Source of the DNA: an uncultured Candidatus Peribacteria bacterium
GTDB lineage: Bacteria > Patescibacteriota > Gracilibacteria > Peribacterales > Peribacteraceae
Direction of reading: 5' to 3'
Length of the DNA stretch: 64,000 bases
Assembly: GCA_964488165.1 (NCBI GenBank)
Contig: CAZATU010000002.1
Coordinates: 137,334-201,333 of the forward strand
Shown here one piece after another: positions 10,430 to 50,642 of this stretch. Numbering within the stretch: position 1 is the stretch's first letter; each line of letters starts with the position of its first letter. Made by a program: the position numbers and the translations under genes. The notes below the pieces were generated by a model, which saw only the letters and a list, made by a program, of their open reading frames with translations, had not been told where the DNA came from and did no database searches.

Positions 10430-10504
10430 TGGAGGTGCCGGTGGGAATCGCACCCACGCATGGGGGTTTTGCAGACCCCTGCCTTACTACTTGGCTACGG
10501 CACC
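10430..10504 (-). tRNA. tRNA-Cys (anticodon GCA), CCA encoded
   Basis: Reverse complement GGTGCCGTAGCCAAGTAGTAAGGCAGGGGTCTGCAAAACCCCCATGCGTGGGTGCGATTCCCACCGGCACCTCCA. Loop CTGCAAA; discriminator U73, typical of Cys. Confidence 0.9.
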
Positions 10505-10596: not shown

Positions 10597-11199
10597 TTTC
10601 CCACTTTTTGTAGAAAAAGAACGATGTTCCACCTTTGCCAACGCGGCAAAGGTGGAGCCAAAACGCTGGCCGTCAAAGCCCCCACTCCGCTTGCGGCACC
10701 ACCCCCGGCGTTGACGGCGGGCCACCCCAGGAGAGCATCGCCGCCTACTACTCTCCTAGGTATACACATCGGGAGGAGGTAGTGCGGGAGGGCCGCCGGG
10801 CTGCTCCATCGCAAAGAACTCCTCGAACATCCGAAGAGGGAGGAAGTTTTCCTGGAACCAGATCTGCTTCCTCAGAGCACCGTGGCGCGGCCCCGCCGCC
10901 ACGGAGGGTGTAGAGGGAGCCCCGCCGTGTCGTGGCGCAGCGAGTCGAGCTGCGCCAACGAGACGAGGAGACGGACGGGAAGCCCTCTACGAGGACTGCG
11001 TCCCAAGCCACTCAGGCTTCGCCATACGGCTCGCCTTCGAGAGCTTGGTCCTGGGAGCCTTGGACCGTCCGACGACGAGGCCCGGGGCGGTGCGGAGTGT
11101 GCACTTGGCGGCGGAGACTTTTCTTTCGCCGGTTTCTTTGCGTGGTTGGCAAAGAAACCGGCATCTCTCGTTACGGCAATTTTCTAAAAAAGTGGGAAA
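10597..11199 (+). repeat. structured non-coding repeat family, copy A (with inverted terminal A/T-rich motif)
   Basis: Shares a ~122-nt near-identical core (from 10627) with copies at 37618 and 41880 (rc), and the full length with copy B. Bounded by TTTCCCACTTTTTGTAGAAAA (10597-10617) and its inverse TTTTCTAAAAAAGTGGGAAA (11180-11199). Confidence 0.85.
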
Positions 11200-11979: not shown

Positions 11980-14415
11980 ATGCGCAATACCTTCGCACGA
12001 TTCCTCATCGCCGCGACGCTCGCACTGTCGCTTCCGATCGGCGCGCTCGGCGCGATCCGCATCGACATTGAAGACACGGTCGCGGGCCTCGGAGCAACGG
12101 CGTTCGCCCCCGATCTTCCGACGGGCGCCGATGCGCAGGCGGTCTTCGGCATTCCCGGCGGCGGCGAGCGCACGGTGCGCGTTGAACGCGGCGCCGACGG
12201 TGCCGCCCGCGCCGACCTCGCTGCATCCGACAGCACCAAGGCTGGCTCGTACACCGTGGAGTTGCGCGCAGGCGCTTCCGTCCTCGGCGCGGCGAGCTTC
12301 ACCGTGGTGCCCGACAGCGTCGACGCCGCCATGTCCGACGTCCGCATCGACCGCAGCGTCATCGACACCGACGGCGCAGACGCCGCCACCGTCACTGTCA
12401 CCCTGCGCGACCGCTACGGCAACGCGCTGACAGGCCGACCCGTCACGCTCGTCGCCAGCCGCAAGAGCGACCAGGTAGAACCCGTCGAACCTCAGACCGA
12501 CGCCAGCGGTTCGCAGCGCTTCTACGTGTACACCGACATGCCCGGCCATCTGTCGCTGCGCGCCATCGACCTCTTAAGCGGCGTCGTGCTCGAGTCCACC
12601 GCCGAGATCGACGCGGGCAACCCGCGCGCCGTCGGCGGCACGTACGACTACTACGCGCCCCAGGCCCCCGTCTACGCCCCGTACCCCTCGCCCTACGCCT
12701 CCTACGCGCCGCCCGCGGACACGCGCACGTTCTACACCGACGGACGCCGCGCGCCGTCGTACGGCAACTTCCTCGGCCAAGTGACGGGCACGTTCGACGT
12801 CGTCGACCACTTCGAGGTGACGGCCCCCGCCGAGCTGCCCATCGACGAAGAGGCGCCCAAGATCACGCTGCGCGCCGTCGACCGCCAGGGTCGCAGCGTC
12901 GAGAACTACCTGGGCACGGCGGTGTTCACCTCCACCGACCCCGACGCCATCCTGCCCAACTTCGGCGAATACACCTTTAAGGAGCGCGACCTGGGGCAGA
13001 AGGAATTCCCCCTCGTGCTGCGCTTCAAGACGCCGGGCGCGCAGACCGTACGCATCGAGGACAAGACCGACCCCAGCATCCGCGGCGAAGCCACAATCAA
13101 CGTCGCCAGCGGCGGCGACTCCGGCGCGGCCGGCACCATCGTCATCACCTCGCATAAGGACGGCGACGTGGTGAGCACGACCGATATCACCATCAAGGGC
13201 ACCGGCCCGGAATACACGAACCTCACCGTCATGGGCGGCACGCGCGACGTGCAGAGCGACACCGACGGCATCGGCAATTTCGAAGCCGTGATCCAGCTCG
13301 CGCCCGACCAGCAGGACTTCACGATCCGCGTACGCGACGACCAGGGCAAATTCGACTCCGGCCCCTTGCACCTGGTGCTCGACAAGAACCCTCCTGAGGT
13401 CGGCGCCATCACCTTCGACCCCTCGGAGCCCGAGGAAGGCGAAAACGTGCTCGTGCGCGTAGAAACGGACCCCGACCTGCCCAAAGTGGTCTTCCTTCTG
13501 GATGACGCGACGGCGGACCGTCCCACGGCGACCCTGACGGCGAACCCCGACGACGCGCGTATCTACCAGGCGTTCTTCCCCGCCCCCGGCCCCGGCGAGC
13601 ACCAAGTGAGCATCATCGCCAGCGACGCCTCCGGCAACCCGCGCGAAGTGCGCGCGGTGCTCGTGGTGAAGACGCGTGGCCTCCCGGTGGTGGCCGGCCT
13701 TACGGCCCAGGCGCGCACCAACGCCGTAGCGCTCCAGTGGGACCCGGTACCCGAGCAAGTGACGGGTTACCGCGTGTACGTCGGTGAACAGGAAGGCACC
13801 TTCGACTACAGCCTCGACACGGGCCGCCCCGTCACCAAGGCCACGGTCGCGGGTCTCCGCCCCGGCACAACCTATTACTTCGCCGTCACCGCGCTGCGCG
13901 ACACGATGGAGAGCATGGAAAAGAGCCAGGTGCTCAACGTGCAAACGCCGGGCCTCACCCTGCGCATCCGCGAGGGCGACACGGCCATGCGCCTCGAATG
14001 GGAATTCCCCGACGACATTGAGCTCAGCGGCTTCCTGCTCCAGTACCACGTCGACGGCGACGAAGACGTGCAGGAAGAGCGCCTGCTCGAAGGCAGCGCC
14101 CGCACCTACACCCTCCGCGACCTCTTCAACGGCTACGCCTACGTCGTGCGCCTTACACCGATCTCCGTGACGGGCGACCGCCTCGACGAGTTGAGTGCCG
14201 AAGTGACGGGCACGCCCAACGGCCCGGCAAACGGCTTCCGCGCCGGACCCTCCGACCCCGCTCCGTTCAACCTGGCCGCAGCCGTGCTCCCCCGCGTCCC
14301 CGAACACTCGCAGGAAGGCCTGCCGTCGATCATCGTGATCGGCGTGATCGGCGCCGCCACGATGGCAGTGCTGTATCGCTCGCGCCGGAAGGTATACTCG
14401 CAGCGTCCTCGCTGA
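11980..14415 (+). CDS. large cell-surface protein with Ig-like (Big) and fibronectin-III-like repeats and a C-terminal TM anchor
   Basis: N-terminal signal MRNTFARFLIAATLALSLPIGALGA. DAATVTVTLRDRYGNALTGRPVTLVAS (Big_1-like). VTGYRVYVGEQEGTFDY...YYFAVTAL (FN3-like). C-terminal IIVIGVIGAATMAVLYRSRRK. Confidence 0.75.
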   Translation: MRNTFARFLIAATLALSLPIGALGAIRIDIEDTVAGLGATAFAPDLPTGADAQAVFGIPGGGERTVRVERGADGAARADLAASDSTKAGSYTVELRAGASVLGAASFTVVPDSVDAAMSDVRIDRSVIDTDGADAATVTVTLRDRYGNALTGRPVTLVASRKSDQVEPVEPQTDASGSQRFYVYTDMPGHLSLRAIDLLSGVVLESTAEIDAGNPRAVGGTYDYYAPQAPVYAPYPSPYASYAPPADTRTFYTDGRRAPSYGNFLGQVTGTFDVVDHFEVTAPAELPIDEEAPKITLRAVDRQGRSVENYLGTAVFTSTDPDAILPNFGEYTFKERDLGQKEFPLVLRFKTPGAQTVRIEDKTDPSIRGEATINVASGGDSGAAGTIVITSHKDGDVVSTTDITIKGTGPEYTNLTVMGGTRDVQSDTDGIGNFEAVIQLAPDQQDFTIRVRDDQGKFDSGPLHLVLDKNPPEVGAITFDPSEPEEGENVLVRVETDPDLPKVVFLLDDATADRPTATLTANPDDARIYQAFFPAPGPGEHQVSIIASDASGNPREVRAVLVVKTRGLPVVAGLTAQARTNAVALQWDPVPEQVTGYRVYVGEQEGTFDYSLDTGRPVTKATVAGLRPGTTYYFAVTALRDTMESMEKSQVLNVQTPGLTLRIREGDTAMRLEWEFPDDIELSGFLLQYHVDGDEDVQEERLLEGSARTYTLRDLFNGYAYVVRLTPISVTGDRLDELSAEVTGTPNGPANGFRAGPSDPAPFNLAAAVLPRVPEHSQEGLPSIIVIGVIGAATMAVLYRSRRKVYSQRPR

Positions 14416-37578: not shown

Positions 37579-38107
37579 AAATCTTCGACCTCTCGTGTCT
37601 CGCTTGAGCAACCGTCAGGGGGCTTATTTCCACCTTTTCCAACGCGGCAAAGGTGGAGCCAAAACGCTGGCCGTCAAAGCCCCCACTCCGCTTGCGGCAC
37701 CACCCCCGGCGTTGACGGCGCACCACCCCAAGAGAGCATCGCCGCCTACCGTTGTCCTAGGTATACAGATCACGAGAAAGTAGAGCGGGAGGGCCGCCGG
37801 GCTGCTCCATCGCGAAGGACTCCTCGAACGTCCGAAGCGGGAGGAGGTTTTCCTGGAACCAGATCTTCTTCCTCAGGGCATCGTGGCGCGGTTCCGCCGC
37901 CACGGGGGGTGTAAGGGGTAGCCCCGCCGTGTCGTGGCACAGCGAGTTGAGCTGCGGCAACGAGACGAGGAGGCAAGCGGGAAGCCTTGGACCGCTTGTC
38001 GACGAGGCCCGGGGCGGTGCGGAGTGTGCACTTGGCGGCGGAGACTTTTCTTTCGCCGGTTTCTTTGTGTGGTGACAAAGAAATCGGCACACTTCGTCTT
38101 TTCTAAA
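37579..38107 (+). repeat. structured non-coding repeat family, copy B
   Basis: Collinear with copy A over its full length except a ~75-nt deletion inside one helix. Shares an extra 5' segment (ctctcgtgtctcgcttgagcaaccgtcaggggg) with copy C. Confidence 0.85.
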
Positions 38108-38183
38108 AAAGTGAGAATTGCTTTCTCTTTGAATAGCAAAGAAACCAGCATTTCATCGCTTATGAAATACAGAGAAAAGAACC

Positions 38184-38208
38184 AAAAAAAGCGCCCCTTG
38201 CGGAGCGC
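38184..38208 (-). terminator. intrinsic terminator of pnp
   Basis: Minus strand GCGCUCC-GCAA-GGGGCGC followed by U7, 22 nt after the pnp stop. Confidence 0.8.
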
Positions 38209-38229
38209 TTTCTTCAACAACACGAGAAT

Positions 38230-40455
38230 TTATCGACGGAAACCGCCTCCACGCGGAGGCCCACGATGTCCGCCGCCAAAGCCGCCGGGGCGCGGTCCGC
38301 GGGGGGCCGGCTCGGGCATGCCTTCGGGGCGCGGCGTCATCTGCTTGAGCGAGAGGCGCGTCTTGCCTTCGGCTGCGTCGTACTCAACACACATGGCATC
38401 GACTTCCTGGCCGAGCTGCACGACGTCCTCCACCTGCTCCGTGCGCTGCCACTGGAGCTCGCTGATGTGGATCATGCCGTCCTTGCCCTTGAGGAATTCG
38501 GCGATGGCGCCCACGCCCGGGATGATACGAACGACTTTGCAGTGGTACACCTTGCCCACTTCGGGCTTGGCGACGATGCCTTCGATCCATTCCTTGGCCT
38601 TCTTCATCGCCTCGCCATTGGCGGTGGTGATGAACACGAGGCCGCTGTCTTCGATATCGATCTCGGCGCCGGTTTCCTTGGTGATCTTCTGGATGGTTTC
38701 GCCACCCTTGCCGATAACCAAGCGAATGTCGTCGGGGTGCACCTGCACCGTTTCGATGCGGGGGGCGTACGGCGACATCGCGTCGCGCGGGCGGTCGATC
38801 ACCGCGAGCATCTTCTGGAGAATCTGCATGCGGCCCTGCTTCGAGCGCTCCAGCGCGTCGGCGAAGACAGAATCGGGCAAGCCCTTGATCTTGATATCCA
38901 TCTGAATAGCCGTGATACCGTTGCGGGTGCCACCGACCTTGAAGTCCATATCGCCGCCGAAGTCCTCCTCATCCTGCAGGTCGCTCAGCACGATGTATTT
39001 GTTCTTCTCTTCATCAGAGACGAGGCCGAGCGCGATGCCCGCGACGGGCTCGAGAATCGGCACACCGGCCGCCATGAGCGCGAGGGTGGAGCCGCAGGTC
39101 GCCGCCATGGACGAGCTGCCGTTGCTCTCGAGGATTTCGGTGACTGTGCGGATCGTGTAGGGGAATTTCTCCTCCTCAGGAAGCACGGGCTCCAGCGCGC
39201 GCTGCGCCAGGTTGCCGTGGCCGATCTCGCGGTTACCCACGAAGAGGCGGTTGCTGGTCTCCCCCACCGAGAACGGCGGGAAGTTGTAGTGATGCATGTA
39301 GCGAAGGTTGTGCTCGCCATCCATGCCTTCGACCAACTGCTTGTCGCCGGGCGAACCGAGCGTGCAGGTCGTAAGTCCCTGGGTTTCGCCGCGCTGGAAG
39401 AGTGCGGAACCGTGGACGCGGTTGGGCAACACGTCGAGCATGACAGAGATGTCGCGGATTTCATCGACCTTGCGACCGCTCATGCGCGTGCCTTCCTCGA
39501 GAATCAGGCGGCGCATTTCTCCTTTGACGACCTTATCGACGAGCTGGCCGCCCTTGGCGTAGAGCGCGGTTGCTTCATCTTCCTTGCCTGCCACAACGGG
39601 GAACTGCTCCTTGAGCTTCGCCTTGGCCTCATCCATCAATTTGGTGAAGATGGCGCGGCGCGTAAGCTTGGGCATCGGCGTCTTGATGGCCTTGGAAATC
39701 TCCGGAAGCGCCCATGCCTTGATGAAGGCGTACGCCTCGTCGTTGCTGAAGGCGGCGGGGGCTTCGAACTTGGGCTTACCGATTTCCTTCTGGATACCAG
39801 CGAAGAACGTGGCGACCTTCTGGGCCCACTTCTTGCCGAATTCGATGGCACGGAGCACTTGTTCCTCGGGCACCTGCTTGGCACCGGCTTCGATCATCAC
39901 GACGCGCTCGAGCGATGCCGTGACGTACATCGTGAGGTCGGACTTCGTGCGCGCTTCGCGGGACGGGTTCAAGACGAGCTCTCCGCCGATGAGACCCACG
40001 CACACCGTGCCCAGAGGGCCGTCGCAGGGGCAATCGGAGAGCGCCACCGAGAGATTAGCGGCGTTGGCGGCAACGACATCGTGCTCATGCTCGAAGTCGT
40101 AGCTTAAGACCGTGGCGAACACCTGGATGTCGTTGTGCAGGTGCTTGGGGAACATCGGGCGCAGGCCGCGGTCGATGACGCGAGCAAGCAGCACGTAGTC
40201 GTCGGATGGGCGACCCTCGCGCTTGCGGAAGCGGCTACCGGCGATCTTGCCTCCGGCGTAGTACTTTTCCTGATACACAACCTGCAGCGGCAGGAAGTCG
40301 ACCGTTTCTCGCGCTTTGGCGCTGACCGTGCAGTTGCCCATGCACACCGTGTCGCCGATCTGAGCGACGACCGACGCGTTGGCCTGGGTAGCCAGCTGAC
40401 CGGTTTTGACAATGAGGCGCTCGCTGCCGAGCTCCAAGGAATATTCCTTCAACAT
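38230..40455 (-). CDS. pnp: polyribonucleotide nucleotidyltransferase (PNPase) with RGG-rich tail
   Basis: Two RNase PH domains, KH (IGKGGETIQKITKETGAEIDI), S1 (GKVYHCKVVRIIPGVGAIAEF), C-terminal PRGPRPGGFGGGHRGPPRGGGFRR. Confidence 0.97.
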   Translation of the reverse strand: MLKEYSLELGSERLIVKTGQLATQANASVVAQIGDTVCMGNCTVSAKARETVDFLPLQVVYQEKYYAGGKIAGSRFRKREGRPSDDYVLLARVIDRGLRPMFPKHLHNDIQVFATVLSYDFEHEHDVVAANAANLSVALSDCPCDGPLGTVCVGLIGGELVLNPSREARTKSDLTMYVTASLERVVMIEAGAKQVPEEQVLRAIEFGKKWAQKVATFFAGIQKEIGKPKFEAPAAFSNDEAYAFIKAWALPEISKAIKTPMPKLTRRAIFTKLMDEAKAKLKEQFPVVAGKEDEATALYAKGGQLVDKVVKGEMRRLILEEGTRMSGRKVDEIRDISVMLDVLPNRVHGSALFQRGETQGLTTCTLGSPGDKQLVEGMDGEHNLRYMHHYNFPPFSVGETSNRLFVGNREIGHGNLAQRALEPVLPEEEKFPYTIRTVTEILESNGSSSMAATCGSTLALMAAGVPILEPVAGIALGLVSDEEKNKYIVLSDLQDEEDFGGDMDFKVGGTRNGITAIQMDIKIKGLPDSVFADALERSKQGRMQILQKMLAVIDRPRDAMSPYAPRIETVQVHPDDIRLVIGKGGETIQKITKETGAEIDIEDSGLVFITTANGEAMKKAKEWIEGIVAKPEVGKVYHCKVVRIIPGVGAIAEFLKGKDGMIHISELQWQRTEQVEDVVQLGQEVDAMCVEYDAAEGKTRLSLKQMTPRPEGMPEPAPRGPRPGGFGGGHRGPPRGGGFRR

Positions 40456-41439: not shown

Positions 41440-41925
41440 TTTCCCACTTTTTTAGAAAAAGTGGGAGGAAAAAGCGTCGCTGAAGAAGACCTTCTGCGGT
41501 GTTCTCCGTGTGCTCGCTACGCAGGCAGGCTCCTCGCTTTCTCTGGAAAGCTCGTCAAACAGGTGCCTGCGCTTCACGCTGCGCTCACGGACACCGCAAC
41601 GAACGTCTTCTAGGCGACACGAGGGAACGACGGTTTGAGGAGGCAGGCCGTGTTGCAGCAACACTTCCTCCCGCTTCGAATGTTCGAGGAGTTCTTCGTG
41701 ATGGAGCAGCCCGGCGGCTCTCCCGCTCTGTTTCCTTCCGATGTGTATACCTAGGAGAGCAGTAGGCGGCGATGCTCTCCTGGGGTGGCCCGCCGTCAAC
41801 GCCGGGGGTGGTGCCGCAAGCGGAGTGGGGGCTTTGACGGCCAGCGTTTTGGCTCCACCTTTGCCGCGCTGGAAAAGGTGGAAAAGCCTAAGCCCCCTGA
41901 CGGTTGCTCAAGCGAGACACGAGAG
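41440..41925 (-). repeat. structured non-coding repeat family, copy C (inverted orientation)
   Basis: The reverse complement shares the 5' segment and ~225 nt with copies A/B. The 3' half is different sequence but ends in the same TTTTCTAAAAAAGTGGGAAA motif, here part of the hairpin CCCACTTTTT-CT-AAAAAGTGGG. Confidence 0.85.
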
Positions 41926-43254: not shown

Positions 43255-44475
43255 ATGACGCCGCTGTACCTCCTCGCCGCCGCCGGTCTCTGCCTTCTCG
43301 GGTTCATCGCCTGGAAGGTTTCGACCGCAAAGAGCACCGGCGCGGACTCCCCCGAGCTCCAGCAGCGCATCGCCAAGCTCGAAGCGGCGCTCGACCAGAA
43401 AACGGGCGAGTGCGGCGAGCTCAAGAAGGCCGTGGAGACCGAGCGTGCCGAGAAGATCGAGCAGCAAGGCAAGGGCAAACAGCTCTTCGCGCAGCTCACG
43501 GAGGTGAAAGCCGAGCACGATCACCTGAAGAAAGAGCGCGACGCCCTGCAGAAATCCGTGAACAAGTACGAAGAGGCCGAAGCGCGCCAGCACAAAGAAT
43601 CCCAGGAGCGCATCACCAAGCTTGATGCGGCGCTGCGCGGCTTCGAGGATGAAAAGGCACGCGTGCGCCGCGAGGACGAGGCGAAGCTCCAGCGCGAAGA
43701 AGAAGAACGTGATCGCCTGTGGGCGGAGCACGAGACGAATGTCATCGCCACATTGAGCGAGCTCTGCAAAGTGCCGGAATACGCATTCTCGTCGTTTACG
43801 AATACGAACCTCCCCGACGGCTTCGAGGGCAGCCTCAAGCCGGACTTCATGATAGAATTCCTGGGGCAGTACGTCATTTTCGACGCCAAGGTTTCGAAGG
43901 CCGAGAGTTTGCAGACGTACATCAACGACGCCGTGAAGAAGACTGCCGAAAAAGTGAAGAAGAACGACAAAATCTTCCCGACGATCTTCCTCGTCGTGCC
44001 GTCTGCCGCGCTCGGCGAACTGAAGAAAACGTACTACCCCAAAGACGGCTTCACGTTCTTCGCCATCGGGCCGGAGGCGCTCGCGCCGATCCTCTACTGC
44101 TTCAAGCGCATCACGGCCTACGAGAAGATGGAAGCCATGGACCCCCAGCAGCGCGAAGGCATCGTGAACTTCATCGCCGACCTCGACGTGCACGTCAGCA
44201 TGCGCAACAGCATCGACGTGCTGATGACCAAGCAGGGCGTGGAGCTGCTCGATAAAACGACCAAGATCGACCCGGCGCTCGGCGAGGAGGTGGCCCGCAA
44301 GAAGCAGGAGAAGATCAAAAACCTGCCAACAATCATGAACAACGTGTTCAAGAAGCTGGTGGCAAGCACCGAAGAACAAGGCGAAGAAATCGAGAAGCTT
44401 GTTGCGCCGAAGGCTTCCGTGCAGCAGAAAGACCTGAACATGGCTCGTGAAACAGTGGTGCGAAAAATCCTCTGA
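43255..44475 (+). CDS. rmuC: DNA recombination protein RmuC-like (coiled coil plus PD-(D/E)xK-like nuclease)
   Basis: N-terminal TM, long Glu/Lys coiled coil, then LKPDFMIEFLGQYVIFDAKVSKAESLQTY, matching the RmuC PD..I...V.IDAK..L..Y pattern. Confidence 0.7.
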   Translation: MTPLYLLAAAGLCLLGFIAWKVSTAKSTGADSPELQQRIAKLEAALDQKTGECGELKKAVETERAEKIEQQGKGKQLFAQLTEVKAEHDHLKKERDALQKSVNKYEEAEARQHKESQERITKLDAALRGFEDEKARVRREDEAKLQREEEERDRLWAEHETNVIATLSELCKVPEYAFSSFTNTNLPDGFEGSLKPDFMIEFLGQYVIFDAKVSKAESLQTYINDAVKKTAEKVKKNDKIFPTIFLVVPSAALGELKKTYYPKDGFTFFAIGPEALAPILYCFKRITAYEKMEAMDPQQREGIVNFIADLDVHVSMRNSIDVLMTKQGVELLDKTTKIDPALGEEVARKKQEKIKNLPTIMNNVFKKLVASTEEQGEEIEKLVAPKASVQQKDLNMARETVVRKIL

Positions 44476-44508: not shown

Positions 44509-46752
44509 GTGGAGAGAACGAGCGACGACACAATTTTGGCCCCTCTGAATCCGCCCCAGCGCGAAGCTGCGACGAAAACCAGCGGACCTTTGCTGATCCT
44601 TGCGGGTGCCGGCTCGGGCAAGACACGCGCGCTTACCCATCGCATCGCGCATTTGCTCTCGCAGGGCGTGCAGCCGTGGCAGATCCTCGCGGTCACCTTT
44701 ACGAACAAGGCGGCAACGGAGATGAAAGAGCGTGTGCGCCACCTGCTGCAGATCTTGGACCCGGCCGATCAGGATTTGGAATTCGCCAGTCGTTCGTCAC
44801 GCTTGCCGGTCATGGGCACGTTCCACTCGATTTGCGTGCGCATCCTGCGGCGCGACGTGGAGAAGATCGGCCGCGAACGATCGTTTGTCATCTACGACAG
44901 CGACGACCAAGAGCGGCTCATCAAAAGCATGCTCAAGGAGCTGCATATCGACGAATCGGTGGTCAAAGCCCGCCCGGCGCTCAGCGCCATCAGCCGGTTC
45001 AAGTCCGAAGCGCTCAGCCCGCAGGAAGCCATGAAGCAAGCGACGAGCGACCGCATGCAGGCCATTGCCCGCGCCTATGCGTCCTACGACCGCGAGCTGA
45101 AGCGCGCCAATGCCATGGATTTTGATGATCTCATTCTCGAAACCGTGCATCTCTTCCACGAATGTCCGGACGTGCTCGATCGCTACCAGGAAACCTGGCG
45201 CTACCTGCACGTCGATGAGTATCAGGATACCAACCACACGCAGTATCTCTTCATCACCATGCTCGCGCAGAAGTATCGCAACCTCTGTGTGATCGGCGAC
45301 CCCGACCAATCGATCTACGGGTTCCGCGGCGCGGACATCCGCAACATCCTGGAATTCGAGAAGGAATACAAAGACGCCGGGCATATCAAGCTCGAGCAGA
45401 ATTACCGCTCCACGCAACCGATCCTCACGGCTGCCGACGTCGTGATCTCCGCGAACCCCAACCGCCCGGAGAAGCAGATGTGGACGGACCGCAAGGACGG
45501 CGCGAAGGTACTCGTGCACGAAGTGGCCGACGAGCGCGCCGAAGCCGACGAGATCGTACGCTCTGTGGAGCGCCACCGCTCCGAAGGCATGCCACTCAGC
45601 AGCCAGGTGGTGCTCTACCGCACGCACGCGCAATCGCGCACCATCGAGGAATCCTGCATGCGCCGCGGCGTCCCCTACCGCATCCTCGGCGGCACCAAGT
45701 TCTACGGCCGTCGCGAAGTGAAAGACGTCCTCGCCTACCTCCACGCATTGCTCAACGTCGACGACACGGTATCGCTCCTGCGCATCATCAACGTACCGGC
45801 GCGCAAGATCGGCGATAAGACGCTCGAACGCCTCCAGGGCTTCGCCGCCATGAACGGGCTCACCGTCTGGGGGGCGCTCCAGCGGGTCAACGAAGTCCCC
45901 GAGCTCGACAGCGGCACCATCGGCCGCATCACGAAATTCGTCGGCATCATCGAACGCGCCCAGGAGCTCGCCAAGGTGCAGCCAGTGAGCGATGTTGCGG
46001 CGCACGTCATCGAGGCCGCGGGCATCGAGGCGTGGCTGCGCGACGGCACCGAAGAGGGCGAGGAACGCTGGCAGAACGTGCTCGAACTGCAATCGGTGAC
46101 GCGGAAGTACGACCGCCTGGAGCCCTTCCTGTCGCTCGTGAGCTTCCTCGAAGAAGTGAGCCTCGTGGCCGAAACCGACAAGCTCGGCAACGGCACGGGC
46201 GACGCCCTCACGCTCATGACCGTGCACCTCTGTAAGGGCCTCGAATACGAGCACGTTGCGGTGTCGGGCTGCGAGGAAGGTATCTTCCCCCACGCCAACA
46301 GCCTCTACGACCGCGAGCAGCTCGAAGAAGAGCGGCGCCTCATGTACGTGGCGATGACCCGCGCCAAATCGCACCTAACGCTCCTGCTGACGCGCAACCG
46401 CATGCTGTGGGGCGAGCGGCGCCAGAACAGCCCAAGCCGTTTCCTCGAAAATCTACCCGAAGCGGTCACCGAGCGACGCAGCGATGACGTGCTCAGCGCC
46501 TTTGCATGGGCGAGCAAACGCGGCGCGGAGAAGATCGGCCCTGCCGCCACTCGCTGGAACGAGTTCGACCAAACACCTTCCCACGAAGCGGAAGGCAGCC
46601 AGATCGACGTGGACGAAGGCGCGCGCGTCGAGCATCCGTCCTTCGGCGCGGGCACGGTGCTCTCGCGGCGTGGCGACGTGGTGGACATCCGCTTCGACGC
46701 GGGTCAGAAGAAGACCTTCGCCCTCTCCATCGCCCCGCTCAAAGCGCTCTAA
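44509..46752 (+). CDS. pcrA: ATP-dependent DNA helicase PcrA/UvrD (SF1)
   Basis: LNPPQREAA, AGAGSGKTRALTHRIAHLL, VDEYQDTN, GDPDQSIYGFRGA, LEQNYRS, VLYRTHAQSR, MTVHLCKGLEYEHV, LMYVAMTRAK. GTG start. Confidence 0.92.
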   Translation: MERTSDDTILAPLNPPQREAATKTSGPLLILAGAGSGKTRALTHRIAHLLSQGVQPWQILAVTFTNKAATEMKERVRHLLQILDPADQDLEFASRSSRLPVMGTFHSICVRILRRDVEKIGRERSFVIYDSDDQERLIKSMLKELHIDESVVKARPALSAISRFKSEALSPQEAMKQATSDRMQAIARAYASYDRELKRANAMDFDDLILETVHLFHECPDVLDRYQETWRYLHVDEYQDTNHTQYLFITMLAQKYRNLCVIGDPDQSIYGFRGADIRNILEFEKEYKDAGHIKLEQNYRSTQPILTAADVVISANPNRPEKQMWTDRKDGAKVLVHEVADERAEADEIVRSVERHRSEGMPLSSQVVLYRTHAQSRTIEESCMRRGVPYRILGGTKFYGRREVKDVLAYLHALLNVDDTVSLLRIINVPARKIGDKTLERLQGFAAMNGLTVWGALQRVNEVPELDSGTIGRITKFVGIIERAQELAKVQPVSDVAAHVIEAAGIEAWLRDGTEEGEERWQNVLELQSVTRKYDRLEPFLSLVSFLEEVSLVAETDKLGNGTGDALTLMTVHLCKGLEYEHVAVSGCEEGIFPHANSLYDREQLEEERRLMYVAMTRAKSHLTLLLTRNRMLWGERRQNSPSRFLENLPEAVTERRSDDVLSAFAWASKRGAEKIGPAATRWNEFDQTPSHEAEGSQIDVDEGARVEHPSFGAGTVLSRRGDVVDIRFDAGQKKTFALSIAPLKAL

Positions 46753-47936
46753 CGCTTGAGCGACGTGCCGCGCACGACGGGCTGATCGAACGGCACCCAG
46801 GTGAAATCGTACTCGCCATCGGTCCAGCCAACTGCCCCGGCATCGAGCGGCGTACCGGGATCATTGATGGTGAAGCGCAGGAAAGCGTCTCCCGCTCCGG
46901 ACACAGCGACGTCGCCATAGAGGCGCAACGTCATGGGAGCCGTGCCAAGCGAACCGACGAAATCGGGAATCGAAGAGCATACGACTTCCCCGGAAACCAC
47001 ATCGCACGGCGTGCCGTCGGGTGTGCCTTCGGGGCGAAGCTCCACGTTGCTCACAGTCACTCCTCCGGAGGATTCGATCTGGAAGCGCAGATCGGTGAGG
47101 CGCACGCGCGCGCCGGCATCCGAACGCTCCGCAGCGAAGCGGAATTGCGCTAGTTGCTGCCCGGTATTCGCCACGAGTACGCCTTGATTATCACCGACGT
47201 TCGTCACGGACGCGATACGTCCGCGAGCAGTTTGGAAGGCGGGGAAGATTTCACTGGAAGCCTTGGTATACGAGCTGTTGCTCCACGCACCATCACCCTC
47301 AACGAGGATGGAATCCACCCGGACGAGCTCCCCGCTGACTCCGCCAGCATCGTGCTGCTTGAGGCGAAGGCGTGCATAGAGCGATATTTCCTTACGATAT
47401 GGCAATTGGAGCGCGCTCGTCGCAAGCGGCAGACGATAACTGCGATGCGCGGCATCGGTGCCGTCGAGCGTTGCGGCGCCGAGATAGCGCGCGTTCTCAT
47501 CGTAGAGAAGTACCTGGCTCACGCTCGCCATGGCGGCATCGAACATCACCACAACAGCGGTGGCATCAATCGGCTCCTGGTTGGAGAAGATACGCACGCC
47601 GGCAATGGATGATGAAACGCTGCCAAGCAACGCAAGATTTGACCGTACGGCCGTGTCGGACAGGGCATCGTACGTGGGATGCTCGACGCGCGTCGCAGGC
47701 GTCGTGACGGGGCCTGGGCGAGGTTCGACCTGCGGGCTGGGACGTGTGCTCTTGGTCGTGCGCTCCTTGAGGCGACGGGCACGCGCCTGCTCCTGCAATG
47801 CGCGACGCGAAATGCGCGACGCGGAAATCCTGCGCTGCGTCGTCACCGATGATTTTGCCGAAGCGGCAAGCGCTGGAGGGAGCGACGATGTACAAACGAT
47901 ACCGAGCGTGCCGATGGCGAGGAGAGTGGTGCGCAT
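46749..47936 (-). CDS. secreted hypothetical protein
   Basis: Signal peptide MRTTLLAIGTLGIVCTSSLPPALA. Start set at the internal ATG 47936. Confidence 0.6.
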   Translation of the reverse strand: MRTTLLAIGTLGIVCTSSLPPALAASAKSSVTTQRRISASRISRRALQEQARARRLKERTTKSTRPSPQVEPRPGPVTTPATRVEHPTYDALSDTAVRSNLALLGSVSSSIAGVRIFSNQEPIDATAVVVMFDAAMASVSQVLLYDENARYLGAATLDGTDAAHRSYRLPLATSALQLPYRKEISLYARLRLKQHDAGGVSGELVRVDSILVEGDGAWSNSSYTKASSEIFPAFQTARGRIASVTNVGDNQGVLVANTGQQLAQFRFAAERSDAGARVRLTDLRFQIESSGGVTVSNVELRPEGTPDGTPCDVVSGEVVCSSIPDFVGSLGTAPMTLRLYGDVAVSGAGDAFLRFTINDPGTPLDAGAVGWTDGEYDFTWVPFDQPVVRGTSLKR

Positions 47937-48001
47937 GAGTGGCGAGTATACCGGGCGCGAAGTGGGCCCGCAGCAGCGATGACGGAAAATCGCCGACATT
48001 C

Positions 48002-48721
48002 TTACACGCCGCCGAGCACGCTGTGCTTCGCGCACTCCTGCGCCAGGACTTCCATGGAATCGACGACCGGCAAGGCAATCCGCATATGTGCGGCTTCCAG
48101 CATGCCGGAGATGTCGGTGCAGCAGAGCGCAATGGTTTCAGCACCTTGCGCCGTCACGCTGTGCACTGCGGCTTCGCACGCCTCGCGGTCGTCATCGGTC
48201 ATCACGCCGGAACGCACGTAGCGAGCGATGGCGCTGTTGAGCGTTTCTTGCAGGGGGGCAGCGGGCTGTACGACGGCGATGCCGGCGGCGGCGAACCGTT
48301 CTTGATAGAACCCGGCCTTGACCGTCATGCCCGATGCCAGGAAGCCGACGGTAGAAACACCCGTCGTCGCCAGGCGCTGCGCCGTGACGTCGGCGATATG
48401 CAACAGCCTCACGCCGGCGGGCACGGCGAATTCGTCCGCAAGCGTATGGACGCTGTTACAGGGAAAGGCCAGCCACCGCACGCCCAGTGCACCCAAACGC
48501 CGCATGCCTTCATTGGCCAGCACGACGAGCCTGCGGGTGGCGCCGATATCCCCGGCGATACAGAGCGCCGCGTCGCTCATGGAAATGGGCATGCTTTCCA
48601 TGGCAAACGACGGCGCATGCTCCGTATCGCGCTGCTGCGCATGCTCGACGAGCTTGCGACAGAACACGGCGCTGGTGAGGGGGCCGTACCCGCCGATGAT
48701 GCCGACGCGTGGAGTGCTCAT
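48002..48721 (-). CDS. Asp/Glu/hydantoin racemase family protein
   Basis: VGIIGGYGPLTS..., two catalytic Cys contexts (AFPCNSVH, IALCCTDIS). Confidence 0.8.
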   Translation of the reverse strand: MSTPRVGIIGGYGPLTSAVFCRKLVEHAQQRDTEHAPSFAMESMPISMSDAALCIAGDIGATRRLVVLANEGMRRLGALGVRWLAFPCNSVHTLADEFAVPAGVRLLHIADVTAQRLATTGVSTVGFLASGMTVKAGFYQERFAAAGIAVVQPAAPLQETLNSAIARYVRSGVMTDDDREACEAAVHSVTAQGAETIALCCTDISGMLEAAHMRIALPVVDSMEVLAQECAKHSVLGGV

Positions 48722-49593
48722 TCGCAGAGTTTGGTAAGGGCGGCGCGCAGCAGCTCTTTGGCTTCATCGAGCGTTGCTGCGTCGTCGACGGCCTCAAGCA
48801 ATTCCGGAGGCAGCGGATCGGCGGCCAAGCGGCCTTCGTGCAGGACGCCGGGGTCCTGGCGCCCGAGAATTACGAGCGCGGTTTCCTTCCAAGTCTCCAG
48901 CGTGATACGGCGGACACCGGGTTGGATCTTTGCCAATTCTGCATCGATGCCGTTTTTCCGCAATGGAATGCAGATGCGTGATTTTGGCTTCTGCGTGTGG
49001 AGCAAATATGGAACGGCCCACTCGCCGTCGACGTCGCGATCGGCGGGCCCGTACAAGCAATCGATCGCCCACTCCTGGGGCAAGACGGCGTCGAATTGGT
49101 GTTCGCCCATGCGCTCACCCTCGTGCGTGGCCTGCCAGCCGTATTTCAAGCGACGACTGTACCCGTTGCGCAACAGCGTCGTACCCACGACCTCGGTCTG
49201 CCACAGCTTGTACTGGCCGTGCTGCTCGAACGACAGCAGATCCGCAAGTCCTGCAGACACGATGTCCTCCTGCACGCGTTCGCGGACGTCCTCGGGCAAA
49301 TCCTGCTCGGTCCACACCTGCATGCCGGGGATGAGCCTTGCGGCCAACTCTTTCATGCGGCTGATCCGGCGATTGATCACCGCGGGAGCCGTCCGCTCGC
49401 GCTGGTTGCCGATGAAGAACACGCCTTCGGCGCCATGCGCACGGCGCACGTGATCGGTGGCCAGCATGTACCTGGCGGTACCGAACGGGATCTTCTCGGC
49501 ATCATGGACGCCGTCTTTGCCTGTGGACGTGCCGGCCATCATGCCAACGGCGGGATGTTCTTCGGTGATGGATGCTTCTTCGATGGAACGCAT
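48718..49593 (-). CDS. hypothetical protein, first gene of the attenuator-controlled operon
   Basis: 291 aa with normal composition. Its stop overlaps the racemase start as ATGA (48721-48718). No family recognised. Confidence 0.65.
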   Translation of the reverse strand: MRSIEEASITEEHPAVGMMAGTSTGKDGVHDAEKIPFGTARYMLATDHVRRAHGAEGVFFIGNQRERTAPAVINRRISRMKELAARLIPGMQVWTEQDLPEDVRERVQEDIVSAGLADLLSFEQHGQYKLWQTEVVGTTLLRNGYSRRLKYGWQATHEGERMGEHQFDAVLPQEWAIDCLYGPADRDVDGEWAVPYLLHTQKPKSRICIPLRKNGIDAELAKIQPGVRRITLETWKETALVILGRQDPGVLHEGRLAADPLPPELLEAVDDAATLDEAKELLRAALTKLCE

Positions 49594-49613
49594 GGATAGG
49601 GGGAGTAGGAAAC

Positions 49614-49646
49614 AAAAAAAGAACCTTCCTCGTTGCGGGGGGAAGG
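49614..49646 (-). terminator. attenuator terminator (segments 3:4)
   Basis: Minus strand CCUUCC-CCCCGCAACGA-GGAAGG-UUC-U7, ending 20 nt before the ATG at 49593. Confidence 0.65.
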
Positions 49647-49674
49647 CGTCGTACGTGCGGTCTCTAGAAGATGA

Positions 49675-49752
49675 TCAAGCGCGCGCGGACTCCTTCCCCT
49701 CCATAAAGGAGAAGTAGAAGAAGCCGCTAAAGAATGCTGCGCTGCGCGTCAT
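49675..49752 (-). CDS. Phe-rich leader peptide (25 aa)
   Basis: ATG ACG CGC AGC GCA GCA TTC TTT AGC GGC TTC TTC TAC TTC TCC TTT ATG GAG GGG AAG GAG TCC GCG CGC GCT TGA = MTRSAAFFSGFFYFSFMEGKESARA. Six Phe and one Tyr within 10 residues. Confidence 0.65.
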   Translation of the reverse strand: MTRSAAFFSGFFYFSFMEGKESARA

Positions 49753-49762
49753 GAACGCCGGG

Positions 49763-49790
49763 ATTCTACTGACGGCGGCAACGGTGTCAA
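49763..49790 (-). promoter_or_regulatory. near-consensus promoter of the leader peptide/attenuator
   Basis: Minus strand TTGACA(49790-85)-16 nt-TAGAAT(49768-63). The ATG lies 10 nt after the -10 element (near-leaderless). Confidence 0.7.
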
Positions 49791-49838
49791 GCGCGGGCAA
49801 CCTTCCCCAAACGCCGCTTCCATGCAACCCTGCGCGCG

Positions 49839-50642
49839 ATGACACTGCGCGAAACCGTCACCGGCTTCTGCAAGAAGCACCGCATCGGCATGGATACCAA
49901 CGCCGGGCAGCACTTCCTGATCGACGAGGACGTCCTGCGCGACATCATTGCGGCATCAGGCCTGCGGCCAGACGACCATGTGCTCGAAGTGGGCGCGGGC
50001 CTCGGCATCCTCACCAAAGAGCTCGTGGCCCACGCCGGGCGCGTGACGACGATCGAGCAGGACCGCCGCTGGCTCGACCCGCTCAATGCGTATCTCAACA
50101 CGCCCGCGATTCCCAAGGGCAAGCTCGCGATTCTCAACGCGAACGCGCTCGACGTGCCGCCGCCGAGCGAGCCGTACATCGTGATCGCCAACATCCCCTA
50201 CCACATTACCGCGCCGCTCTTGCGGCAGCTCTTCTTGGAAAGCACGAGCCGACCGCGTTCTGCCACGCTGCTGGTGCAAAAAGAAGTGGCCGAGAAGCTC
50301 GCCGAAACGCCGCCGTCGACATTCCTCGGCGTCCTCGTCGCACTTGCAGGAACAACGCGGATCGTCCGCATCGTGCCTCCCGCAAGCTTCCTGCCGCCGC
50401 CCAAAGTGGAATCGGCGGTGATCCGCATCGACGCTCACGAGCCCGCGCTCGTCACGACCAGCGAAGCCAAAGCGATCCTGGGCTTCGCGTCGGCGGCATT
50501 CGCGGGCAAACGCAAGATGCTGCGCGGGACGATCGGCAAGCTCCAGGGCGGTATGGAACGCCTGGAAGCCGCAGGCATCGACCCGGAACGTCGTCCGCAA
50601 ACACTCACCATTGCCGAGTGGATTGCCCTGGTACGAGCCTGA
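49839..50642 (+). CDS. rsmA: 16S rRNA (adenine1518/1519-N6)-dimethyltransferase
   Basis: GQHFLID, VLEVGAGLGILT, IVIANIPYHITAP. Confidence 0.9.
   Translation: MTLRETVTGFCKKHRIGMDTNAGQHFLIDEDVLRDIIAASGLRPDDHVLEVGAGLGILTKELVAHAGRVTTIEQDRRWLDPLNAYLNTPAIPKGKLAILNANALDVPPPSEPYIVIANIPYHITAPLLRQLFLESTSRPRSATLLVQKEVAEKLAETPPSTFLGVLVALAGTTRIVRIVPPASFLPPPKVESAVIRIDAHEPALVTTSEAKAILGFASAAFAGKRKMLRGTIGKLQGGMERLEAAGIDPERRPQTLTIAEWIALVRA

Follow-up and report, generated by a model that had tools for sequence, protein, structure and literature searches.

A candidate phenylalanine-codon leader-peptide attenuator upstream of a TrpRS/TyrRS-like gene and a racemase gene in Candidatus Peribacteria

The DNA analyzed here is a 64 kb window (64,000 nucleotides of contig CAZATU010000002.1, assembly GCA_964488165.1, from an uncultured Candidatus Peribacteria bacterium), and its subject is the region upstream of two overlapping genes: an uncharacterized gene, X, whose product has a predicted fold like that of tryptophanyl- and tyrosyl-tRNA synthetases (TrpRS and TyrRS), and an amino acid racemase gene. 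Between a promoter and X lies a short open reading frame (ORF) with a dense run of Phe codons, followed by RNA segments that can pair as 1:2, 2:3, or 3:4 and by a U7 tract, with 20 nt between the end of that tract and the ATG of X at 49593. We consider it highly likely that this region senses how much charged tRNA-Phe is available and works as a transcription attenuator of the ribosome-mediated, leader-peptide kind. A preliminary description of the sequence had proposed the same mechanism; the positions it gave for the promoter, the ORF, the segments, the U7 tract, and the 20-nt gap all proved correct on the minus strand, and both the Phe run and the alternative pairings are kept in relatives. 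All leader features of the window are on the minus strand and are listed in Table 1, where W stands for the leader of the window and L numbers stand for related loci.

In the proposed switch, RNA polymerase would start at or within a few nucleotides of the leader AUG, and a ribosome would bind straight at the transcript 5' end. With plentiful Phe-tRNA, the ribosome would pass the six Phe codons to the UGA stop codon, where it would hide segment 2 and with it the inner arm of the antiterminator. Segments 3 and 4 would then pair, and the hairpin and U7 tract would end transcription ahead of X. With scarce Phe-tRNA, the ribosome would stall in the Phe run, within segment 1, and leave segment 2 free to form the stable 2:3 helix; no terminator would form, and X and the racemase gene would be transcribed. 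On RNA that no ribosome has entered, 1:2 would form alongside 3:4, and the outcome would again be termination. The sequence elements and their conservation among relatives were observed directly, and folding shows that such a switch is thermodynamically feasible.

The promoter matches at 11 of 12 positions and is the sole promoter-like (sigma-70-like) site between 48500 and 50500, where 0.3 would be expected from shuffles. In all 11 leaders that we compared, the -10 box lies 7 to 12 nt from the start codon, and no Shine-Dalgarno (SD) sequence is present. Because the start codon in the window is 10 nt past the -10 box and has no SD sequence, the leader ORF would be leaderless or nearly so; a transcription start placed from the position of the -10 box implies a 5' untranslated region of about 0 to 4 nt. 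An SD core precedes just 4 of the 41 long ORFs of the window by a crude count, so the lack of an SD sequence before the leader ORF and before X is normal in this genome. C/U-rich tracts (…CUCCCCCUAUCC-AUG; 49594 to 49613 in the window) lie ahead of the start codons of X and its homologues, a pattern that suggests that SD-independent initiation is usual in this Peribacteria-like lineage. The gene upstream of the promoter, ksgA/rsmA (49839..50642; TIGR00755, 188.7 bits), is on the plus strand and divergent; therefore, the hairpin and U tract are not the end-of-gene terminator of an upstream gene. A further copy of GGGGAAGG, the core of segment 2, lies at 49799-49807 on the minus strand, directly upstream of the -35 hexamer, where L001 has GGGGAAG. 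Read on the plus strand, this copy is CCTTCCCC and lies some 30 nt ahead of where ksgA starts; it could be part of a C/U-rich 5' region of ksgA or a coincidence.

The Phe run had been described as very unlikely to arise by chance, and counting bears this out. A six-frame count over 127,944 ten-codon windows found two loci only that reach six Phe codons, and the second (43935-43964) is an artefact that lies antisense to a real gene. The Phe content of the 41 confident genes of the window is 3.4% of residues. The Phe codons are confined to the frame of the ORF: the counts per frame, with the ORF frame first, are 6/0/0 in W, 5/0/0 in L130, and 6/0/0 in L135. Another Phe-codon-rich spot, at 38161-38193, was rejected as the U tract of the pnp terminator; this is a strong intrinsic terminator, GCGCUCC-GCAA-GGGGCGC plus U8 (38180-38210, minus strand), located just after pnp (38230..40455). 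The inverted pair formed by GGGGAAGG and CCTTCCCC with 30 to 60 nt between them occurs once in the window against an expectation of 0.00.

Table 1. Features of the putative attenuator and its target genes in the window, and leader peptides at related loci
Feature	Position	Strand	Sequence or size	Remarks
-35 hexamer	49785..49790	minus	TTGACA	TTGAC[AT] at the same place in all 11 homologous leaders; spacers diverged
-10 hexamer	49763..49768	minus	TAGAAT	16-nt spacer from -35; 10 nt before leader ATG
Leader ORF	49675..49752	minus	MTRSAAFFSGFFYFSFMEGKESARA	25 codons plus stop; ATG at 49752
Regulatory run	49705..49734	minus	FFSGFFYFSF	6 Phe (4 TTC, 2 TTT) and 1 Tyr in 10 codons
Segment 1	49708..49727	minus		5' arm of 1:2; spans Gly codon GGC and last four Phe codons; from minimum free energy fold and RNAalifold
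Segment 2	49685..49702	minus	GGAGGGGAAGGAGUCCGC	Core GGGGAAGG at 49699-49692; partner either segment 1 or segment 3
Stop codon of leader ORF	49677-49675	minus	UGA	
Segment 3	49637..49650	minus	GACGCCUUCCCCCC	Core CCUUCCCC at 49646-49639; common to antiterminator 2:3 (49702-49637) and terminator 3:4
Segment 4	49629-49624 (whole element 49614..49631)	minus	GGAAGG	Then UUC and U7 at 49620-49614; terminator 3' arm and tail
Gene X	48718..49593	minus	291 aa	First regulated gene; uncharacterized, TrpRS/TyrRS-like (class Ic aminoacyl-tRNA synthetase) predicted fold
Racemase gene	48002..48721	minus	239 aa	Second regulated gene, 4-nt overlap with X; Asp/Glu-racemase family
L001 leader			MTRSAVFFSGFFHFSFMEGKESVRA	Contains FFSGFFHFSF; X 81% identical
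L004/5 leader			SQHTFFFGAYYFSFTGGRRCV	DNA-pattern locus
L006 leader			IKQNWFSGFFFTPYLVGKESQCLS	DNA-pattern locus
L007/8 leader			MAQRQSYFYGFFFTPYLAGKE..	DNA-pattern locus
L128/L129 leader			MASRAFNGFFFYPFSEGKELTCA	X 48% identical
L130 leader			SPARTFFGFFYASFTEGKELTRA	X 30% identical
L131 leader		minus	MLHRASFDGFTFNFFFTEGR	X paralogue, protein-anchored
L131 leader		plus	MSTQYISFGFWWSLTQGTKLTCTRI	Contains SFGFWWSL; X paralogue, protein-anchored
L132 leader			MHSMLFSYGYWWYSLGDGKGLYCLRC	Contains FSYGYWWYSL; protein-anchored
L135 leader			MSTIRFSVAFTFFFFTKGSALRI	Protein-anchored

The three alternatives differ in stability when folded. The 2:3 antiterminator is very stable: the 2:3 region folds at -31.2 kcal/mol (z, -3.5), and none of 200 shuffles was as good. 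The 1:2 region folds at -14.2 kcal/mol (z, -1.55), and its predicted helix, in which GCGGCUUCUUCU..UCUCC pairs with GGAGGGGAAGGAG.UCCGC (49727-49685), is longer than the one in the preliminary description. The terminator hairpin of the window (3:4; 49650-49621, followed by the U7 tract) is weak.

Homologous loci were gathered in two ways. The leaders of L001, L128/L129, L130, L131, L132, and L135 were reached via the identity of protein X, a route independent of any RNA pattern; five leaders, at L128 to L135, came by protein homology only. Five metagenome loci, L004 to L008, were retrieved with a DNA pattern of segments 2, 3, and 4 plus the U run; the promoter, the in-frame Phe/Tyr-rich ORF, and segment 1 were not demanded by this pattern, yet they are present in all five. 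Eleven leaders were counted in total (W, L001, L004/5, L006, L007/8, L128, L130, both strands of L131, L132, and L135). Contig searches of genomes and metagenomes with patterns from a 4-sequence alignment of X returned no loci, the peptide patterns being too narrow. The DNA pattern without the U run returned at least 119 genome-contig loci, which were rejected as unrelated GGGGAAGG/CCTTCCCC hairpins or repeats after filtering for the U run and an aromatic ORF; true leader members may have been missed in the genome-contig collection.

Across the 11-leader family the Phe run and the segments are conserved. The aromatic codons are always in the frame of a start codon 7 to 12 nt past a TTGAC[AT]/-10 pair, a Phe run is kept in 9 of the 11 leaders, with the other two rich in Trp and Tyr, and every homologue has a hairpin and a run of at least five U at the terminator position. 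The closest comparison is with L001, where DNA identity to the window is 94.9% in the leader ORF and 83.6% from the stop codon to the U run, compared to 75.7% in the X coding sequence, 64% between the U run and the ATG of X, and 65% upstream of the -35 hexamer. All six Phe codons are kept between the two, and Tyr to His is the sole aromatic change.

Conservation of the peptide itself could have another cause. The short ORF might act through its nascent peptide or its translation, either by ligand-sensing arrest of the TnaC or Erm-leader type or as an upstream ORF that controls Rho access or translation of X; the aromatic residues would then count as amino acids rather than as codons. Such a peptide would fit the invariant Gly within the aromatic run, the G-K-E that often follows the run, and the KELT[CR]A tails, as well as the interchange of F, Y, and W, which a physico-chemical constraint would predict. 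However, the conserved residues coincide with RNA pairing: the partner of the Gly codon GGC is G[UC][CU], immediately 3' of segment 2, and segment 2 itself consists of the G-K-E codons. Because the conserved Gly and G-K-E are paired RNA positions (in 1:2 and 2:3), the case for a functional peptide is mostly removed. The N- and C-terminal residues vary freely, the placement of the stop codon relative to segment 2 suits the classical scheme, and the conserved intrinsic terminator with its exclusive 2:3 helix would be needless in Erm-type systems. We therefore regard peptide- or translation-based control as very improbable and attenuation by charged tRNA-Phe as the better account of the leader.

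Two related loci have more than one leader. In L131 (770-1190), two paralogues of X (54% and 33% identical to X of the window) diverge from one 390-nt intergenic region, each with its own promoter, leader, and hairpin. One of these leaders is Phe rich (FDGFTFNFFF) and the other has F-G-F-W-W, which hints that the paralogues may answer to different aromatic amino acids. L132 has, immediately 5' of its main Tyr/Trp-rich leader, another leader-like ORF (120-270) that is degenerate, VISLLRFGWRRYRFRSAEGYVRA, and that has its own CCCUUCC/GAAGGG hairpin and U run; the two may be tandem attenuators.

The pairing scheme was recovered from the alignment of relatives. Given ten leaders and no hint, RNAalifold returned a consensus of 1:2 plus 3:4. 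In the alignment, 78.7% of cells were paired and double changes were found in 4 of 27 pairs; the covariation score was equalled by 6 of 500 shuffles, and the percentage paired was above all slid controls. MAFFT places segment 3 off by one column in some rows. Compensation is clearest in two cases, a U-A to G-C double change in helix 1:2 of L004/L005 and a three-way change in L135, where GGGGAG, CCCUCCCCC, and GGAGGG replace GGGGAAGG, CCUUCCCC, and GGAAGG. Strong covariation had been expected in the inner 2:3 helix; this helix is only marginally more structured than shuffles and is given no weight here.

Switching was examined with a ribosome masking model in which the A-site codon plus 11 nt are hidden and folding is at equilibrium. 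A masked stall in the middle of the Phe run gave 2:3 and no terminator, and a ribosome at the stop codon gave the terminator. This swap between terminator and antiterminator was obtained in 8 of the 11 leaders (W, L001, L004/5, L006, L007/8, L128, L130, and L135). The free RNA folds as 1:2 plus 3:4 in W, L007/8, and L128.

Because no part of the structure has better support than the terminator/antiterminator pair, and because translation of the leader ORF is read from sequence and would proceed with no SD sequence, one could imagine a switch set by a trans-acting factor (an RNA-binding protein, an uncharged tRNA, or a small ligand), with the ORF incidental. We consider this very unlikely. All 11 leaders keep the frame, a start codon immediately past the -10 box, in-frame aromatic codons, and a stop in or beside the 2:3 arm, the Phe run of L007 differs from that of L008 by a TTC/TTT change, and SD-less initiation is the apparent norm here. 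Scans with Rfam gathering thresholds of the window and 10 related loci returned tRNAs only and no leader, T-box, or riboswitch family. These observations favor a translated leader that reads charged tRNA-Phe.

Several results weigh against the attenuator as formulated. The main anatomical flaw is the 3:4 hairpin of the window, which has 6 to 8 pairs and a loop of 8 to 11 nt, folds at -10.2 kcal/mol (z, -0.41), and is no stabler than shuffles; a simple terminator scan of 48500 to 50500 did not list it, its loop being at or beyond the limit of that scan. Taken one sequence at a time, the inner 2:3 helix shows no significant structure (z, +0.6 to -1.8), and the near invariance of the core segments makes the support from covariation, while real, thin. 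In L004 to L008, segments 2, 3, and 4 and the U run are circular evidence, since the search pattern demanded them. The masking model gave no swap at equilibrium in 3 of the 11 leaders, namely both L131 leaders and L132; the leaders in which the swap fails have either a much stronger terminator or one without overlap with the antiterminator, and the terminator hairpins of the L131 minus-strand leader and L132 (about -17.8 kcal/mol) are stronger than that of the window. L138, the most distant homologue of X, has no clear attenuator. The specificity of the family as a whole is better called aromatic, because two leaders carry Trp and Tyr instead of mainly Phe. X is not a recognized Phe gene, and the link of X and the racemase of the window to Phe is putative. 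Finally, we infer from sequence the transcription start, the translation of the ORF, the premature 3' end, and the response to Phe.

X belongs to a very small protein family. A word-indexed search of 5.8 billion clusters found 4 homologues, and 16 clusters were recovered when 1.84 billion representatives were searched exhaustively with a HMMER profile. X has no Pfam or NCBIfam match, and 19 family members had none even at E values up to 10, including to Pfam tRNA-synt_1b; sequence searches of the PDB with both X alignments returned nothing meaningful. AlphaFold2 gave a model with a pLDDT of 93.2 and a pTM of 0.90 from the 19-sequence alignment, and a pLDDT of 46.6 only from the 4-sequence alignment. 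When the model was compared to the PDB with Foldseek, the top 18 matches were all TrpRS or TyrRS (E values down to 1.2e-5; about 10% identity), with query-normalized TM of 0.41 to 0.56 over about 300 columns; among the 50 matches listed, the only entry other than TrpRS or TyrRS was a designed esterase at rank 19. X is thus predicted to have the Rossmann-fold catalytic domain architecture of the TrpRS/TyrRS type. The canonical HIGH and KMSKS motifs are unrecognizable, with a lone conserved His and a K/R-containing loop left. Two motifs, G-x-S-x-G-x-x-G-x-H near the N terminus and GGE..FD in the middle of the protein, are by eye reminiscent of the HIGH and GxDQ regions. X thus shares its predicted fold with class Ic TrpRS and TyrRS but differs from them in having no tRNA-synt_1b match, in being always paired with a racemase or epimerase, and in being very rare.

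The second gene is a predicted amino acid racemase of the Asp/Glu-racemase family (PF01177, 4.7e-26; TIGR00035, 107.8 bits versus a cutoff of 93.1), and four orthologues share both catalytic Cys motifs (PCNS.H and CCTD) without change. X is adjacent to an Asp/Glu-type racemase in W, L001 to L003, L130, L133/L137, and the P0006 contig. In L128 (1228-3777), X is followed by a 466-aa protein without a family match and then by an enolase-superfamily protein instead of the Asp/Glu-type racemase. This protein matches the OSBS model TIGR01928 (227 bits versus a cutoff of 200.65), a subgroup that takes in N-succinylamino-acid racemases, and in L128 the racemase partner has thus been swapped for a non-homologous one. 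The ORF that follows the racemase gene in the window (46749-48035, minus strand) encodes a secreted-looking protein with no family match; its true start is probably MRTTLL… near 47936, which would give 395 aa as in L001. Homologues in L007/L008 have an SLH domain and are not beside X; for this reason the ORF is probably a conserved neighbor outside the regulated operon.

Gene neighborhoods in relatives tie the leader family to aromatic amino acid supply. In L004/L005 the leader is directly 5' of a DAHP synthase of class I (PF00793). The L007/L008 leader has a canonical prephenate dehydratase, with an ACT domain, on its 5' side (just upstream in L007) and a 105-aa unknown protein on its 3' side; in other respects the gene order (ComEC, KsgA, the locus, and an SLH-type secreted protein) is that of the window. 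The L003 operon consists of X, the racemase, chorismate mutase, and a class I/II aminotransferase, and L135/L136 have a divergent aminotransferase. L137, a lower-GC relative, has the order pheS, pheT, tyrA, X, and racemase, and a few kilobases further on a DAHP synthase, a second DAHP synthase, DHQS, and EPSPS/SK. A leader-like ORF that ends in AFWYGFGFYFS, with Phe, Tyr, and Trp codons, precedes the second DAHP synthase and the DHQS-EPSPS/SK operon there (12003-12165). With DAHP synthase, prephenate dehydratase, chorismate mutase, tyrA, and pheST as neighbors, X and the racemase are embedded in a predicted aromatic amino acid gene set. The window itself has no homologue of prephenate dehydratase, DAHP synthase, or chorismate mutase by tblastn. 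A role of X as the only phenylalanyl-tRNA synthetase of the cell was rejected on the basis of L137, where canonical pheS-pheT lies just upstream of tyrA-X-racemase. From the regulatory logic and these neighborhoods we infer that the X-racemase operon raises the supply of L-Phe, of aromatic amino acids, or of charged tRNA-Phe.

The same neighborhoods bear on a last alternative, in which the product of the ORF would be a small peptide, aromatic or hydrophobic, with a function of its own (a precursor of a ribosomally synthesized and posttranslationally modified peptide, or a membrane peptide). The hairpin would be an ordinary leaky terminator that fixes how much peptide is made relative to the enzymes, and X and the racemase would modify the peptide. 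A small ORF, a hairpin, an aminoacyl-tRNA synthetase-like enzyme, and a racemase or epimerase resemble some peptide-modification clusters, and W and L001 have strongly conserved peptides. Yet leaders of this family precede non-homologous genes (DAHP synthase in L004/5, the 105-aa protein in L007/8, and X elsewhere), their neighbors are genes of aromatic amino acid biosynthesis and not of peptide export or maturation, and segment 2 complements the 5' arm of the terminator in every lineage, including the compensatory variant of L135, a feature that a leaky terminator would not require. Such a peptide product is hard to credit, and regulation by attenuation accounts for the leader far better.

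The host context is that of a reduced, symbiont-type genome. The valyl-tRNA synthetase encoded in the window is 65 to 70% identical to sequences labeled Candidatus Peribacteria, Peribacterales, or Peregrinibacteria, the G+C content of the window is 62.7%, and MBI5794548.1, a homologue of X, carries a Candidatus Uhrbacteria annotation. Judged by its sequence, the window is Candidate Phyla Radiation (CPR) DNA. CPR bacteria are largely amino acid auxotrophs. Organisms of the Peribacteria type are thought to import most amino acids, and Ca. Peribacter riflensis, with a genome of 1.25 Mb and 58.5% G+C, has few amino acid biosynthesis genes, its amino acids being inferred to come from external proteins (PMC4736985).

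Elsewhere in the window, a repeat of about 260 to 520 nt is present in three copies of 87 to 94% identity, two direct (10627-11146 and 37628-38073) and one inverted (41627-41884). One copy starts about 120 nt from a tRNA gene (10433-10504). The repeat yields look-alike spurious ORFs (…VGGDALLGW.AVNAGGGAASGVGALTASVLAPP…); candidate explanations are a miniature inverted-repeat transposable element, an insertion sequence remnant, and a repeated intergenic module.

The mechanism proposed for the leader is textbook material, and the novelty is in the lineage and in the target genes. The E. coli PheL and PheM peptides are of similar flavor to the runs found here, such as FFSGFFYFSF and GFFFTPY. Attenuation of this kind is established in E. 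coli, at pheL-pheA and pheST, and in Corynebacterium glutamicum, at aroR-aroF (PMC11802643). The window shares with pheL-pheA and pheM-pheST a short ORF dense in Phe codons, the 1:2 / 2:3 / 3:4 scheme, a terminator before the gene, and, as predicted here, derepression at low Phe-tRNA (PMC11802643), and pheST is an aminoacyl-tRNA synthetase operon under attenuation, as the first gene here is synthetase-like. The E. coli systems differ in that their targets are chorismate mutase-prephenate dehydratase and phenylalanyl-tRNA synthetase, whereas here an SD-less, leaderless-type ORF in a CPR host precedes a TrpRS-fold protein and a racemase. The likeness to the pheA and pheST leaders drawn in the preliminary description therefore holds for architecture and does not extend to homology of sequence or structure. 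An Rfam cmscan of 48500 to 50500 at E values up to 10 returned two irrelevant weak matches only and no match to Phe_leader (RF01859).

Two further systems share parts of the arrangement. C. glutamicum aroR-aroF (Neshat et al. 2014, as summarized in PMC11802643) has a Phe-Tyr-Phe leader peptide before a DAHP synthase and responds to Phe limitation. The L004/L005 leaders are also directly before a DAHP synthase; the differences are the phylum, the unrelated sequence, the longer run here (5 to 6 Phe), and a target in the window that is not DAHP synthase. In mycobacteria, leaderless polycysteine short-ORF attenuators are established (bioRxiv 10.1101/834739). Like the leader described here, with its predicted 5' end, these ORFs start at or beside the transcript 5' end, have no SD sequence, carry consecutive codons for the sensed amino acid, and control a downstream operon. 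They sense Cys, in contrast to the Phe-rich leader here with its conserved U-tailed hairpin. Downstream control in the mycobacterial case is reportedly mainly dependent on ribosome stalling rather than on a canonical intrinsic terminator switch. A literature search for CPR together with leader peptides and transcription attenuation found no match in the collection searched.

The attenuator extends classical leader-peptide attenuation to the CPR, and the family of at least 11 aromatic-codon leaders, which lies outside all Rfam models, could seed a new RNA family. Its logic, on when Phe-tRNA is low, and the gene neighborhoods give a testable role to the rare X family and its racemase partner. 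We tentatively propose, as a possibility that falls somewhat short of an even case, that the attenuator marks a new Phe/aromatic supply module in the CPR, made up of a synthetase-derived TrpRS-fold protein and a racemase or epimerase. In one version, supported by the swap of the racemase in L128, D- or derivatized aromatic amino acids would be salvaged into L-Phe. In another, X and the racemase may replace prephenate dehydratase non-orthologously; this is suggested because they hold the slot of the L007 dehydratase, between ksgA and the SLH-type secreted protein, and because they occur with chorismate mutase and an aminotransferase (L003) or with tyrA (L137) where no prephenate dehydratase was called. 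If true, the class I synthetase fold would have a new enzymatic role in this module, which would also be, within the literature collection searched, the first amino acid-sensing attenuation regulon described in the CPR.

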